Positions 25,802 to 46,420 of a stretch of 53,512 nucleotides of DNA are shown piece after piece. A model generated the notes under the pieces. It saw only the letters and a list, made by a program, of their open reading frames with translations, was not told the origin of the DNA and did not search any database. The stretch spans positions 1 through 53,512 of the forward strand of contig JYFJ02002635.1 in assembly GCA_000934665.2 (NCBI GenBank). The letters are read 5' to 3'. A program made the translations under genes and the position numbers. The stretch's first letter is position 1, and each line of letters starts with the position of its first letter. The DNA is from Catajapyx aquilonaris. Its lineage: Eukaryota.

Positions 25802-26094
25802 CTGAGGAAAGAGAACAGATAAATGTGAAACTATTGGCCATCACTCACTTTATAGAGACAGACATTAAATATATACGACATTTGAAATTGTAGATTCTGT
25901 TATGATGAAGTAAAAAAGGTGTATTTATTAGTATAATATTGTGTATTGTACACAGCCTACACAGAGCATCTATGCCCTTCTTTTTGGAGATTTGGAAATG
26001 GTGTCACCCTACATGAAATTATAATTATTCAACATTATGCGTTATGAATAAGTTCATAGATCCCCTCCTAATGAAGCAATAACTCCTACGAAGT

Positions 26095-26166
26095 GGGGGT
26101 GTAGCTCAATGGTAGAGCATCTACTTTGCATGTGAAAGGTCCCGGGTTCGATCCCTGGCACCACCA
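26095..26166 (+). tRNA. tRNA-Ala(TGC), probably a pseudogene
   Basis: 72-nt cloverleaf GGGGGTG-TA-GCTC..GAGC..TTTGCAT..GGTTCGATCC..CACCACC-A followed by a T-tract; G3:A70 mismatch and a mismatch in the anticodon stem. Confidence 0.75.
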
Positions 26167-26427
26167 TTATTTTCTTCTATTTTCGAGTGTCTTTTTTCCC
26201 CTTCCTGCGCTACCTCTTACAGGTTATTCAACTTGTCATTTCTATGTTGGAATTTAAAAAGTGAAAATAATGTAGTGAATGTAGTTTAGTAACCAACTGC
26301 TGGTAATACAGTATTTGAGGTTTGGGGAACTTGCACTGCCAGTGGGAGGCCTACCAATAATTGTGAAAGTACTAGTAAATATTGCATGAGGAATGCTGGT
26401 AAAAAATTTCCCATTGAATTTCATTTG

Positions 26428-33763: not shown

Positions 33764-35187
33764 GGACATATTAGCCGTCACCGAATTTTTTTTTCCGTCT
33801 GCGACGGCGCTGCGTTACCTAGAACCCCGTCCGGCGGGCCAATTAAAACATCAGCATGTGGAGAGTGCTTCCATTGTTGTCACTGTTTACAAATCGAGTG
33901 AGTGACGCGGACGACCCAGCGACTGGTCTCTTCTGCCTGCTCGGCTGCTCAAACATTGAGTGCGTTTACATGGGACTAAAAATCGGCCTAGCCTATGCTA
34001 GGCGAACCGGTTTACTCCCATGTAGCCGCTGGGCCTACGATAGACCGGCCTTATCTGATCCGTTGTCGGGCGCAGCCCAAGCCTTTTGGATCGGGTGGTC
34101 TACCTAAGGCGATGGCCTTGCTTAGGAAGCCTGGGTCAGGCCGATTTTTAGTCCCATGTAAACGTACTCAGTATCTGCAGGGATACGCAGGGAAAAACGG
34201 GAAAATAGTGATGTTAGAAGCAAACCACATTGGAAAAATATTATCCCTGGACTCAAAGAAAGGTTTTCGTCCACAGCACACGAAATACAATATTCCACCC
34301 CTGAGGAGGGGGTGTCAATGATTAAGATCAGGGGTGTGCTAATTCAAAGTGCGTCAACTGACGTACGGATTCTTTCGGTTTTTGTGTCTTTTCCGCGTAA
34401 TTCGACACCTCTAAGACGAATGGAGACCATGCCCCGTATGTCAGACACCACGTCAGTCTCGTAATTTGTCCCCAAAGACGTCATATCTCAAAATGGCTTC
34501 CGCTGTTCCGCATATACGAGTACGTGTCGTTCGCGTCATATTCGCGCCAGGAAGAGATACACGACTAACGCTTGTTGCAGGTGTTCATATTATTGTGTCC
34601 AACCCCTGTACGTGTCATGTTAGTCGTGTACTCTCCTGGTGCGAATATGACGCGAACGACACGTACTCGTATATGCGGAACAGCGGAAGCCATTTTGAGA
34701 TATGACGTCTTACGAGACTGGCGTAGTGTGACATATGGGGCATGGTCTCCATTCGTCTTAGAGGTGTCGAAGTACGCGGAAAAGACACAAAAACCGAAAG
34801 AATCCGTACGTCAGTTGACGCACTTTGAATTAGCACACCCCTGATCTTAATCATTGACACCCCCTCCTCAGGGGTGGAATATTGTATTTCGTGTGCTGTG
34901 GACGAAAACCTTTCTTTGAGTCCAGGGATAATATTTTTCCAACGTGGTTTGCTTCTAACATCATTATTTTTCCGTTTTCTCCTGCGTATCCCTGCCGATA
35001 CTGTGTAAGCAGGCAGAAGAGACCCGTCGCTGGGTCGTCCGCGTCACTCACTCGATTTGTAAACAGTGGCAACAATGGAAGCACTCTCCACATGCTGATG
35101 TTTGAATTGGCCCGACGGACGGGGTTGCCAGGTAACGCAGCGCCGTCGCCGACGGAAAAAAAACATTCAGCGACAGCTAATTTGTCC
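33764..35187. repeat. Largest fold-back: ~570-bp arms, 49-nt spacer
   Basis: 33764-34569 (minus the insertion) is the reverse complement of 34619-35187. Confidence 0.95.
33958..34169. mobile_element. 212-bp MITE (TIR GAGTRCGTTTACATGGGACTAAAAATCGGCCT) in the left arm only
   Basis: Inverted termini with ATT/AGT flanks; absent at the equivalent position of the right arm (~34998-35010). Confidence 0.85.
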
Positions 35188-36179
35188 AGCACTGTAGCCT
35201 ACTTAGCAGAAAAGAATGCGATGATTCACCCTAGCTTACACTTGTTTTTGCAACCAGTGAGTTAATTGCCATCATTGACAGTTATGCTCCTTCCATACCA
35301 TTGCGAGGCAGCTCTTCATTGCTGACTCGATGTTGGATCCTCCCAAAGCAGATCTAACACCTCTCAAAGTTGCTGGGGAATTTGGACACAATCAGGAGGA
35401 GGCACAAGCTGTGCTCGTTCAGGTCAGCTCTCAATTGGAAGACCTCTGAAAAAAAATGTCCAAATGTGTTAACTGCGTTGTACTGAGCATTACACAATCA
35501 CATCAAATTTAAACAAAGCATGGCCAGAGGATGAGACAGTCAGTTTTTAATAATGTGCTCCCCATTACTGCCTGCTCATAAGTAACGTTTAATTAGGATT
35601 AAATTATTCAAAATCATGAGGACTGGATATTCAGCACTTGGCATTGCATGGAATACAAAATGTTGCAAAAAAAAACTGCACAAAATTATTGGCTGTCATC
35701 CATACACTTGCCTCACCTAGTGCCTTACTGCCCTCTAAAGCTACAAGCAGACAAAAATCTTGCAATTTCACCTGGGAAAACACAAAATAATGTCTATTAG
35801 TCGCACCCGCATGTTGTAACGATTTCAACTGGAGGCCATCATGGAAAATTTCAAACTGGTCAAGGTTGCCAGACGAAAAGAACGAAGAGAAGGTAGAAGG
35901 TTGCAAATACAAATCGTTGTTGGTTCTCTGCTGCTTCTGCTGGTGTTGTTTTTGTTGTTGCTGTTTTAGTATGCCACGAATAACTAGCGCAACGAAATGA
36001 GGCAGATAAGTTGGCATCCTGTCGCTTGTTGTTGGTTAGGTTGCTACGTGGGTTGCTACATCAACTGTTGTCATGGTGAACCCCCCAGCTCACAACAGGC
36101 AGTCAACAAACTTGGTCACTTCACAGTTTGTTCTGCTTGGGACTAGTCGTGTCTTTACAACCCTCTCAGAAACAAAAAG

Positions 36180-37412
36180 ATGGGTATGTCATCTTTTAAG
36201 TGTATTTATTTCTAAACATTGTATAACCTGATTCTGTGTCACATATTGCCTTATTCTGCAGCTCCCCAAACAAAGCAAGTCGTCGAAGGTGACTCTCCTG
36301 ACTACCTCATCTTCAAGAATGAGCTGTTGACTAAGCTGTCCAAGCAGGAGGTCAAAGCCGATGGAAGCTGGGGCTCATTTGCCTGGCACAGCTGGCAGAA
36401 CCTTCCAGAGAAGAGGAAGACCAGGTTCTGGCATCTGGCCATCAAGGCCTACCGCCACAGGGAAATGCAAAACGCCGCAGACGAGATCAGGCCCCTGGAC
36501 GTGCCCGACAACATCCGCATTTTCTACGTCAAGATGCGAAGGGTAATTAATTAGCATACTTATTTTGGAATGCACGTGACCATGGCAATCAAAACTAATT
36601 AAACGAATTCGTGGGCTTGTTATGTTCGGAGTTATTGTTTTATTTGCTATGGATACGCCACAACAGGCCTTTAAACAATAAATGTCAACAATTTGACCAA
36701 AAACTATTGAAGGCATTTGATGCCAATGTTGTTTAATTTTGCTGACTGATTTTCCCCCTGTTACCAGCACTACAGGTTGAAGTTTCCCCGGTGCAATGCT
36801 TCCTACTGGATCCTTCAGGCCCTGATCGAATGGGCCAGCCTGGACGAGCGCAAGCGAGCCAAGATCACCAGGAGGGTGCCCAGGGTACTGAGTCAGAGGG
36901 TCCTCCAGCAAGGGACCGAGGGCGACTCTCAACCAAAGGCCGGTCGCTCTAAGACCAGCGTCGGTACCGAGGCGAGGCCTGCCAAGAGGGGAAAGGGCCG
37001 CCCACCCCACGATGCTGCTGGAAGGAAGAAGCAGCAAGGCAGGAAAGAGTCCGGCCTATCGCGTAGGGAGGTGTCCGCCATCGCCCTGGCTCTGGCCAAG
37101 GCCTCTGGGAGGAAGTACTCTTCCGGCAAGGCGGGCACGAGGACTCTTGAGGATGTCGCCAAGAAGGTTGCCAAGAGGGGGGTTGCAGCTGCACCCAAGA
37201 AGGTTGCCAAGAGCGGGGTTGCAGCTGCACCCAAGAAGGTTGCCAAGAGGGGGGTTGCAGCTGCACCCAAGAAGGTTGCCAAGAGGGGGGTTGCAGCTGC
37301 ACCCAAGAAGGTTGCCAAGAGGGGGGTTGCAGCTGCAGCCAGGAAGATGCTGGCTAAGGTGGCCCCCATGTTCAGGGAGGAGGAGGAAGCCCCTGATGAA
37401 CCTCAGGCTTAG
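36180..37412 (+). CDS. 3-exon gene (36180-36183, 36262-36542, 36768-37412), 309 aa: tandem divergent HMG-box-like domains, AT-hook-like motif and H1-like Lys/Ala repeat tail
   Basis: ATGG|GTATGT..TTCTGCAG and AGG|GTAATT..GTTACCAG give a continuous 930-nt frame; GC-rich exons and AT-rich introns; motifs YLIF..WQNLPEKRKTRF...A and F....R.......P...WASLDERKR; AATAAA at 37582. Confidence 0.85.
37159..37338 (+). repeat. Coding minisatellite, 5 x 36 bp (KKVAKRGVAAAP)
   Basis: CCAAGAAGGTTGCCAAGAGGGGGGTTGCAGCTGCAC repeated five times with only two substitutions. Confidence 0.97.
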
Positions 37413-37581: not shown

Positions 37582-37587
37582 AATAAA
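37582..37587 (+). promoter_or_regulatory. Polyadenylation signal of the HMG-box gene
   Basis: AATAAA 170 nt after the stop, followed by a T/GT-rich stretch. Confidence 0.65.
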
Positions 37588-44480: not shown

Positions 44481-44926
44481 GTAAGCAACTTTTTCTGTAT
44501 TAATAATATGAGAAGTCATATCAAGTCATATGGTAATAAGATCTTTCTCACCCATACACAAAGAAGTCTTCCCCAAACTGCACAAACCTCACCCTTCCCT
44601 TCCCATTATTTTTTAAGAGTAGACATCTTGGTGTGCTTAAAATGCAGGAATTCTGCATGATAATCAACATTAGCACAGGGTATGGTATCAAAATTTCTGA
44701 TTCTTGTGCAACCTGTTTAAATAGCCAAGTTAAGGTCTGCACAAATATTTCTGATTTAATGTACAGGAGGTTTCACTGTTTTGAAATTTATTTTGCCCCT
44801 ACAAGAAATAAAGTTCTACTTTCAAGCTAGTACCACCATGTAACAGTCAGTTCAGTTTTCACACCCTGTTTAGTTTAGGAATATGAAATATAATGTACAA
44901 GTGCATACTTTTGGTTTCTTCAGATC

Positions 44927-46420
44927 ATGGTCAGAAGTTCGCAGCCCAAGAGTTTGAGGAAACTAAGCATGAATTCCATGATCAACACAATTTTGAAGGA
45001 ATGCCAAGAGAGTGATGGCAAAGACGTGGAGCACATCTGGAAGAAAGTGCATGATATTCCATACCATTTTGCCAATGAATACGTGCATGATCTCTTGATG
45101 ATAGCCTCGAGACATTGTGGAAAGATTAAATTACGTGGTGCATTTCATTTATACTGCACTGAGATAGACTTAGAGAAAGCAACATTTGAACTTTCACCTG
45201 GTGTGTTCAACCAACTTTTGGTCAATATGGATACGCTAAGGAATCTGGAAGTGCTGAAGACTGGTCATCCTAGCATGTTAAATGGAGTAAGATTCAATTT
45301 CCCAAGAATGCCGAAACTCAATTGCCTCCATACGTCGTCTCCATTACATACAGACACTGTGAGAAATATTATCCGAAACTGCCCAAGGTTGGAGGATATT
45401 CGTTTGAGATACATGTCTATGAAGGAACTGAAGTCCCTACCGTTCCAGTGCAAAAAGCTGAAGAAAATCGAGCTTAGGCAAGAGGAAACATTTATCCCTG
45501 CTAGTACTACCATGCATCTGCTTGAGACCCTTGAGAATCTCGAATCAGTGCGAATTGATAACATGGTTGGGGTCCTGGAATTGTGCACAGATTCATATTC
45601 TTTAAAGGACTTTGTCGAAGACTTTCATCCAAGAGACTCAATGATGCTGATTAAGTTAGTCTACCACTTCCCAGAACTTCATCGCCTGTCACTGCAACTG
45701 CACTACAGGAATATGGACCTCGCACCTATAAACCAGCTGGTCAACCTCCAGAATTTGGAGGTTTCACATGGATCTGCTACCAGCCTGATTTGCCTGATTG
45801 AAGTCTGTTTCCCTCGTCTGACTGCTTTCAGTTGCAAAGGAGTAACCGAACTTCACTACCTCTTTGGACCAGACATGAACCTACCAGGTGTTAAGTATCT
45901 CAAGTTACAGCAAACTGGTCTAGTTGACTTGCCTACCATTGGTCAGATTTTCTCTAGGCTGGAAAGAATACATTTTGATGGTAATGTGTACACTACACTC
46001 CCACACAATTTGGGACCCATGTTTCCGCATTTGACATCTCTCAAGGCCTCTTCATTGCTAGTGAGGCAAATGTGCAGCCTCATGCCTTCTGGCCAAAAGC
46101 TTAAAACACTGTATGTGCATGATGAATCTTATGATGAGGATTATTTCCTGGATCTCCTTCAGGCTCCTTCACTGCAAAAGTTGCATACATTAAGCTTAAC
46201 CTCTGATCGAGTCACACAGGCATCATCAACAGCATTTCATATTCTTGAGTCACTTGGAGACGATTATTTGTACAAGATTAAATTAACTAGCACAAACATA
46301 CGTATGTCACGTAATGAGTATTTAGCACTACAAAGGGAGCTACAGAAGTACGACATGTGCTTTTATGTGAAGTGCGGTCATTGGCCTCGCACATGTATGT
46401 GCATTTGGAGAGGAGAGTGA
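44927..46420 (+). CDS. 497-aa leucine-rich-repeat protein (RNI/F-box-LRR-like repeats, BC-box-like N-terminus), single coding exon
   Basis: Long intact ORF; repeated LxxLxL motifs (CPRLEDIRL, CKKLKKIEL, FPELHRLSL, LVNLQNLEV, FPHLTSLK, LQKLHTLSL); N-terminal PKSLRKLSMNSM. Confidence 0.88.
   Translation: MVRSSQPKSLRKLSMNSMINTILKECQESDGKDVEHIWKKVHDIPYHFANEYVHDLLMIASRHCGKIKLRGAFHLYCTEIDLEKATFELSPGVFNQLLVNMDTLRNLEVLKTGHPSMLNGVRFNFPRMPKLNCLHTSSPLHTDTVRNIIRNCPRLEDIRLRYMSMKELKSLPFQCKKLKKIELRQEETFIPASTTMHLLETLENLESVRIDNMVGVLELCTDSYSLKDFVEDFHPRDSMMLIKLVYHFPELHRLSLQLHYRNMDLAPINQLVNLQNLEVSHGSATSLICLIEVCFPRLTAFSCKGVTELHYLFGPDMNLPGVKYLKLQQTGLVDLPTIGQIFSRLERIHFDGNVYTTLPHNLGPMFPHLTSLKASSLLVRQMCSLMPSGQKLKTLYVHDESYDEDYFLDLLQAPSLQKLHTLSLTSDRVTQASSTAFHILESLGDDYLYKIKLTSTNIRMSRNEYLALQRELQKYDMCFYVKCGHWPRTCMCIWRGE

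Follow-up and report, generated by a model that had tools for sequence, protein, structure and literature searches.

Two described systems stand closest to the gene reported here. One is HMG-D of Drosophila, which is reported to possess a single HMG box, a basic region that raises its affinity for DNA, and an acidic tail of 12 residues that occludes the box (PMC4207994). The other is the group of Drosophila sperm nuclear basic proteins (SNBPs) with HMG boxes, of which Tpl94D, Prtl99C, Mst33A and CG42355 are two-box examples (PMC9917458). Here we analyzed a stretch of 53,512 nucleotides from Catajapyx aquilonaris (GenBank assembly GCA_000934665.2, contig JYFJ02002635.1, positions 1 to 53,512 of the forward strand), which is called the window below, and studied a locus at its positions 36,180 to 37,412. 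An earlier interpretation of this locus from the letters of the DNA, referred to here as the sequence-only reading, had proposed a spliced gene that fuses two divergent HMG boxes, an AT-hook-like motif and a tail like that of histone H1, and had taken the product for a possible sperm protein. We think, with a probability of roughly 0.5, that the locus is a real, lineage-restricted gene with predicted splicing, and that it makes a nuclear architectural protein of 309 residues and isoelectric point (pI) 10.8 which binds DNA or chromatin.

The three coding pieces were joined by their coordinates in a script. The joined frame consists of 930 nucleotides and 309 codons, and its single stop codon, TAG at 37410-37412, is the terminal one. 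In the sequence, the two open reading frame (ORF) fragments and the short ATG piece described earlier can indeed be connected through canonical GT-AG sites into one 309-residue frame, the splicing itself being predicted. The donor sites are AGATGG/GTATGT, where exon 1 ends at 36183, and CGAAGG/GTAATT, where exon 2 ends at 36542. The acceptor sites are ...CCTTATTCTGCAG/C, from which exon 2 starts at 36262, and ...TTTTCCCCCTGTTACCAG/C, from which exon 3 starts at 36768. Intron 2 also carries the motif CTGAC about 22 nucleotides upstream of a pyrimidine tract and CAG. The piece described earlier as a 4-nucleotide ATG exon is present with its four nucleotides, but it is better regarded as the coding end of exon 1 than as a whole exon. 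An alternative acceptor at 36774 was rejected, as it shifts the reading into a frame that is closed by a stop just before 36892. Another ATG, at 36073-36075, lies upstream in a frame other than the coding one; were it transcribed and the same splice made, translation from it would give a short upstream ORF closing early in exon 2.

The base composition of the locus was then compared with this gene model. The GC content of the exons is much higher than that of the introns (Table 1), while the flanks show values of about 0.40-0.42. When the GC content was plotted in 60-bp bins, its steps coincided with the proposed junctions. In the joined frame, the GC content at the third codon position (GC3) exceeded that at the first (GC1), which in turn exceeded that at the second (GC2); the values of GC3, GC1 and GC2 were 0.763, 0.516 and 0.366 in exon 2, and 0.701, 0.612 and 0.547 in exon 3. 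Each sense frame of intron 1 contains one or two stops, and those of intron 2 contain more (Table 1). Stop-to-stop ORFs of at least 200 residues number three in the whole window, and two of the three lie within the gene region. Because several independent signals, namely the GC steps, the GC content by codon position, the stops in the introns, the AATAAA downstream of the stop codon and the scarcity of long ORFs, point in the same direction, the gene model appears to go beyond chance.

The encoded protein has a pI of 10.76 and a mass of about 34 kDa. The numbers of basic (Lys and Arg) and acidic (Asp and Glu) residues in its successive thirds are 27 and 15, 19 and 6, and 25 and 8. The aromatic residues are concentrated in the first 120-135 residues or so, and the remainder is hydrophilic. 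The region after the N-terminal modules is probably disordered and strongly basic.

Within this basic region the sequence-only reading had noticed an AT-hook-like motif, and KRGKGRPP with its G-R-P was indeed found in the linker. The canonical core of an AT hook is R-G-R-P with basic flanks. The core of the present motif is K-G-R-P-P and differs from it, and AT_hook gave no Pfam match at E≤10 in either exon product. Since the G-R-P and the basic flanks are present, the label of AT-hook-like is fair.

The tail that follows is built of tandem repeats. Tandem Repeats Finder gave a 36-bp unit in 5.2 copies with 97% matches at 37159-37346. In the codon register, three of the five units are exact copies of KKVAKRGVAAAP, one has Ser in place of Arg, and one ends in Ala. 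Over 180 bases the five units show just 2 differences, each of which alters an amino acid. The units are nearly identical, and therefore we think that they were expanded or homogenised recently. One unit of 12 residues contains three Lys, one Arg, four Ala and one Pro, and the net charge over the repeats is +4 to +6 per 20 residues. The tail of 72 residues as a whole comprises 23 Ala, 17 Lys, 11 Val, 6 Arg, 5 Gly and 5 Pro. Thus, the roughly five-fold repeat and the short acidic end exist as had been claimed. As to the H1-like character of the tail, the likeness in Lys/Ala/Pro-rich composition stands, but the winged-helix domain Linker_histone was not found by Pfam at E≤10.

In the numbering of the 309-residue protein, PDYLIF is at residue 14 and WQNLPEKRK at residue 46 in box 1, and IRIFYVKM is at residue 86 and WASLDERKR at residue 117 in box 2. 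The spacings from Phe to Trp are 27 (F19-W46) and 28 (F89-W117) residues, in agreement with the sequence-only reading. Each box contains the pattern W..L.E with three basic residues directly behind it, and the second copy begins 71 residues after the first. In the conserved core of an HMG box, helices 1 and 3 each contribute an aromatic residue and helix 2 contributes Trp. Compared by eye with this consensus, box 1 has Y16/F19, W46 and F57/Y65 at these places, and box 2 has F89/Y90 and W117, with no aromatic residue in its third helix. Judged in this way, the aromatic positions and the spacings appear broadly to fit the HMG consensus.

In order to look at the fold, we used AlphaFold models. 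The structural evidence for an HMG-like fold covers box 1; box 2 spans a splice junction. A model trimmed to 36288-36488 reached a predicted local distance difference test score (pLDDT) of 75.6 and showed three helices at residues 4-18, 27-37 and 41-66 of the trimmed sequence. With this model Foldseek gave three matches at E≤10, and the best of them was the HMG protein Abf2p (E 3.9, template-modelling score 0.54 on the query, 66 columns). When the three matches were rescored by VIA-align (VIA), Abf2p obtained a Z value of 4.8. Against a viral library, Foldseek found nothing at E≤0.001 for the trimmed model.

A VIA search independent of Foldseek was made against 48,161 PDB representatives, and 50 matches were listed. 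The first was the HMG domain of SSRP1 (Z 5.3, root-mean-square deviation 4.5, 63 residues aligned), the second was an HMG protein of Plasmodium (Z 4.9, root-mean-square deviation 3.9, 67 residues aligned), and Abf2p was the seventh (Z 4.6). Other HMG boxes among the matches listed belong to LEF1, Sox11, BAF57, HMGB3 (box 2), capicua, MLL3, Sox9 and HMGB1. Named HMG boxes account for 11 of the 50 matches listed, and for 13 when two probable ones are added, that is, the chains 9rn2_W and 9mn4_A, whose length and numbering point to SOX2 and TFAM as the probable identities. The HMG matches among the 50 cover 57 to 67 of the 67 residues, and their identities, up to 19%, are the highest listed. In VIA-align, a Z value below 8 can mean no more than a common arrangement, and a Z value of at least 5 was reached by one chain, SSRP1. 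Because of these two points, the support for an HMG-like fold of box 1 is moderate and not decisive; we regard box 1 with moderate confidence as a predicted HMG-like domain.

Several results weigh against the reading given above, and most of them concern the HMG boxes. For the sequence searches, the exon 2 product of 93 residues (P0001) and the exon 3 product of 214 residues (P0002) were used as queries. The Pfam scan took these products separately, so that box 2 was scanned as two pieces. HMG_box (PF00505) gave no Pfam match at E≤10 with either product. The sole Pfam match was DUF4716 (PF15837) at residues 38-74 of the exon 2 product, with 16.7 bits and an E value of 0.0074, below the gathering cut-off of 27, and a full-text literature search for DUF4716 or PF15837 found no papers. 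Among PDB chains there were no matches at E≤10, either by phmmer with the exon 2 and exon 3 products or by hmmsearch with a two-row profile. In favor of the HMG fold, a features search of a protein atlas, in which all scores were below the reliability mark of 0.9, gave HMG_box clusters at rank 5 (0.85) and rank 26 (0.79) and CHDNT at rank 30; we take these HMG_box clusters as a lead only. Residues 1-110 of the exon 3 product gave only a DUF6434 cluster (0.78) in this atlas.

The structural results contain points of the same kind. The first AlphaFold model, made from the whole exon 2 product, had a pLDDT of 49.7 with helices at 12-26, 35-45 and 49-70. With this untrimmed model, none of the 50 VIA matches listed was an HMG protein, and generic helical proteins appeared at Z 5-6. 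Foldseek likewise gave generic helical proteins, with Abf2p at rank 3. The better model was obtained after trimming and with a two-row alignment in which the second row was the exon-3 part of box 2, and the structural scores of that model are middling. The similarity of the two boxes is also marginal. Their ungapped alignment of 38 residues (38-75 against 109-146) had a Smith-Waterman score of 33, and this score was reached by 77 of 2000 shuffles. A prediction of the complex between the end of exon 2 (30 residues) and the start of exon 3 (56 residues) gave 0.02 against a mark of 0.34, and this counts neither way. Canonical HMG boxes have a basic P-K/R-R-P strand before helix 1. In the present protein the corresponding strand is acidic in both boxes, EGDSPD in box 1 and PLDVPD in box 2, and therefore binding to the minor groove may be weakened. 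In regard to the HMG boxes that had been claimed, then, the fold of box 1 received weak support from the trimmed model and the VIA search, but membership in the family could not be seen by sequence. The structure prediction for box 1 gave three helices with HMG neighbors at a pLDDT of 75.6, but the untrimmed model gave no HMG match in VIA.

The searches for relatives were negative. In the protein collection, the exon 3 product had no homologue at E≤0.01, and the exon 2 product had one candidate at E≤10, with none scored. An exhaustive phmmer search with the exon 2 product among 1.84 billion representatives gave two matches and no HMG protein; the two were long bacterial repeat proteins with four to six short matched stretches, and we rejected them as spurious. 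Back-translated patterns yielded 246 matches in metagenome contigs and 161 in genome contigs, and none of either was confirmed. In the window, tblastn of the joined protein revealed no paralogue. The gene is thus an orphan across all collections searched. Because no relatives were found, conservation can support neither the gene nor the fold, and this too counts on the negative side.

These results bear on how the locus may otherwise be explained. It might contain no functional gene at all, the open frames being accidents of a GC-rich island with a minisatellite, or the remains of a decayed or never-translated transcript. The absence of relatives agrees with such an explanation, as does the overlap with an antisense ORF of 226 residues. 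So does a weakness of the coding call itself, which is that parts of the GC-rich exons remain open in each of the three sense frames and in several antisense ones. However, the GC steps fall at GT-AG sites, and the pattern of GC content by codon position is common to both exons only when they are joined as proposed. The start codon is in a good context, and the candidate polyadenylation signal is at a sensible distance. In addition, the aromatic and hydrophobic residues make the N-terminal region domain-like and not uniformly of low complexity, and the openness of the antisense frame over the exons mirrors the sense GC3. We consider it very improbable that the locus is not a gene. It is unlikely too, but a good deal less so, that the gene is real and encodes a basic, repeat-tailed orphan whose N-terminal helices form a generic three-helix domain, with HMG neighbors that are a by-product of a low-information model. 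The failure of Pfam and the PDB sequence searches to show an HMG signal speaks for this, together with the weak DUF4716 match as the sole Pfam result, the unrelated helical proteins matched by the poor model, and the best Z of 5.3 for the better one, in a range where a common arrangement may be enough. Set against this are the 11 to 13 HMG boxes among the 50 matches listed from 48,161 chains, with nearly full coverage and the highest identities, and Abf2p, which is the best Foldseek match of the better model and ranks third even with the poor one.

The proposal that the protein is a sperm nuclear basic protein, which would be expressed in spermatids, replace histones and condense sperm DNA, as protamine-like proteins with HMG boxes do in Drosophila, accepts the gene and differs in its role. 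The high pI and the possible two-box layout are in accord with it. The lack of detectable relatives is consistent with fast evolution, and the near-identical coding tandem repeat suggests recent change. Most Drosophila SNBPs are reported to carry HMG boxes, one or two in number, and to exceed a pI of 10 (PMC9917458), as does the present protein with 10.76. However, 309 residues exceed the length of those proteins, which tend to have fewer than 200 (PMC9917458), and the features listed would also suit an architectural protein of somatic tissues or embryos, for example one like HMG-D. We regard the sperm role as unlikely. A bolder form of this idea, in which a protein that compacts DNA in sperm chromatin or the early embryo arose independently and combines an AT hook with two HMG-type boxes of extreme divergence and an H1-like tail that expanded recently, seems to us somewhat less likely still. 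If it were true, HMG-based packaging of the genome would have been invented a second time, outside Drosophila, and the number of tail repeats might vary within the species.

Returning to the chromatin-binding architectural protein that we prefer, its action can be pictured as follows. The N-terminal 135 residues or so would form two tandem, weakly similar three-helix modules, of which the first is predicted with moderate confidence to be HMG-box-like, its sequence being too diverged for family profiles. These helical modules may attach to DNA, and true HMG boxes would do so in the minor groove. The charge of phosphates would be neutralised, and DNA bridged or compacted, by the repeat tail together with the GRP motif, much as by the C-terminal tail of a linker histone or by the basic region that HMG-D possesses. 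Binding may in turn be damped by the short acidic end if it folds back on the basic parts, which is the case in HMG-D and HMGB1. Taken together, the 309-residue protein is most likely a lineage-specific chromatin-binding protein. The coordinates of all features are listed in Table 1.

Table 1. Positions in the window of the predicted gene, the parts of its product and the overlapping antisense ORF.
Feature	Position	Strand	Basis or remark
Start codon ATG and first base of codon 2	36180..36183	+	3' end of exon 1; AAAAAGATGG context, GTATGT donor
Intron 1, 78 nucleotides, GT...AG	36184..36261	+	GC 0.308; each of the three frames has stops; tract rich in pyrimidines, then CAG
Exon 2, 281 nucleotides, residues 2-95 (box 1 and start of box 2)	36262..36542	+	Open frame, GC 0.548, GC3 0.763
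Box 1 (residues 11-77), three-helix domain by prediction, weakly HMG-box-like in fold	36288..36488	+	AlphaFold model, structural neighbors
Putative box 2, exon-2 part, residues 78-95	36489..36542	+	Motif PD..I.F, counterpart of PDYLIF in box 1
Intron 2, 225 nucleotides, GT...AG, interrupts putative box 2	36543..36767	+	GC 0.351; 4-5 stops per sense frame
Exon 3, coding part, 645 nucleotides including TAG stop	36768..37412	+	Open frame, GC 0.619, GC3 0.701
Putative box 2, exon-3 part, residues 96-148, including WASLDERKR	36768..36926	+	Ungapped match to helices 2 and 3 of box 1
AT-hook-like motif KRGKGRPP, residues 168-175, basic linker	36984..37007	+	Direct reading
Five tandem 36-bp units, each a 12-residue Lys/Ala/Val-rich repeat	37161..37340	+	Codon register
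Degenerate sixth unit	37341..37376	+	Sequence reading
Short acidic C-terminal end EEEEAPDEPQA	37377..37409	+	Sequence reading
AATAAA, candidate polyadenylation signal	37582..37587	+	170 nucleotides 3' of stop
Antisense ORF, 226 residues, crosses all of intron 2	36375..37055	-	Stop-to-stop

The antisense ORF of 226 residues deserves a separate remark. It stays open over the AT-rich intron 2, and in one given frame only 49 of 20,000 shuffles of the intron were open. It has no Pfam match, its earliest ATG is at about residue 113, and in composition it reflects the sense strand; we therefore rejected it as a true gene, and its openness is probably due to chance.

Other elements were seen in the surroundings of the gene. 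Roughly 1 kb upstream, at 33787-35163, there is a near-perfect inverted repeat of about 1.4 kb with nested arms of 282 nucleotides (96% complementary), 119 nucleotides (97%), 85 nucleotides (95%) and 42 nucleotides (90%). A cluster of overlapping ORFs on both strands at this place is explained by the inverted repeat, and these ORFs have no Pfam match. The repeat could represent a mobile element of the foldback type, or else a locus for hairpin RNA. Nearer to the gene, about 200 bp upstream of the start codon, a simple tract rich in CTG and GTT (35915-35975), which reads like poly-Gln/Lys on the minus strand, lies inside a minus-strand ORF of 134 residues (35631-36035) without a Pfam match.

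Farther away, an intronless stop-to-stop ORF of 508 residues occupies 44894-46420 on the plus strand, and its GC3 of 0.464 is unlike that of the gene studied here. It showed weak matches to leucine-rich-repeat chains in the PDB (4u09_A as the best with E 6.8e-06, 4u08_A, 4r5c_A and FLRT2). Pfam named no family for it at E≤0.01, and the protein collection contained no relatives. The sole Rfam match in the window was a tRNA-Ala with the anticodon UGC at 26094-26167 on the plus strand (52.3 bits), which was also given by ARAGORN. An ORF of 154 residues at 10053-10517 on the minus strand had no Pfam match at E≤0.01; a stretch of it may resemble the helix-turn-helix of mariner-type transposases. 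In total, the 85 other ORFs of the window contained no Pfam family at E≤0.01.

In conclusion, we think that the locus is a well-formed orphan gene with a plausible function, and that its general layout of box, basic region and short acidic tail has been described before. Provided that the gene is expressed and that its modules truly have the HMG fold, it would represent an HMG-type architectural protein beyond recognition by sequence, joined to a young tandem repeat of H1-like character. It would then be a useful case of how chromatin-packaging proteins are reinvented, of how far the HMG fold tolerates changes of sequence, including the loss of the basic N-terminal strand, and of how coding minisatellites build DNA-condensing tails. 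If it were sperm-specific, HMG-based sperm packaging would be extended beyond Drosophila.

The features of the protein can be compared with known systems one after another. With AT-hook proteins of the HMGA type it shares a G-R-P core among basic residues, as in KRGKGRPP; the motif differs in being a single copy and in having Lys, not the canonical Arg, before G-R-P. Abf2p and TFAM possess two tandem boxes, and Abf2p was the best Foldseek neighbor of the box 1 model, at scores that are not significant. By eye, the N-terminus of the present protein is acidic within the first 15 residues (Glu and Asp), unlike a mitochondrial presequence. Abf2p and TFAM are not known to carry a long basic repeat tail or an AT-hook-like motif. 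The tail of linker histone H1 is rich in Lys, Ala and Pro, probably disordered and strongly cationic, as is the tail here, and this likeness is one of composition only. In contrast to H1, the present protein shows no Linker_histone domain in either exon product by Pfam at E≤10, and its tail also contains Val and Gly and consists of exact tandem repeats of recent origin, where that of H1 is degenerate.

The HMG-box SNBPs of Drosophila resemble the present protein more broadly. They are reported to have a high pI and one or two diverged HMG-type boxes, to evolve fast and to be lineage-restricted (PMC9917458). Their boxes are recognisable as HMG, whereas the boxes here went unrecognised by Pfam, and a repeat tail is not described for them in the available part of that report (PMC9917458). 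Finally, HMG-D and HMG-Z, together with cHMG1 of Chironomus, show the same order of parts, that is, a helical box, a basic region rich in Lys and Ala, and a short acidic end, which has about 11 residues here and 12 in HMG-D. The description of the protein as a novel hybrid was overstated, since the combination of box, basic region and acidic tail is the layout known from HMG-D (PMC4207994), and basic sperm proteins with two boxes are described for Drosophila (PMC9917458). The present protein differs from HMG-D in having two modules instead of one, in that its boxes have no detectable HMG-box sequence similarity, and in the strand before helix 1, which is acidic rather than basic. Its basic region, too, is of another make, being a five-fold, near-perfect repeat of 12 residues together with an AT-hook-like motif. 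By this comparison, Drosophila HMG-D appears to be the closest worked-out analogue of the protein.

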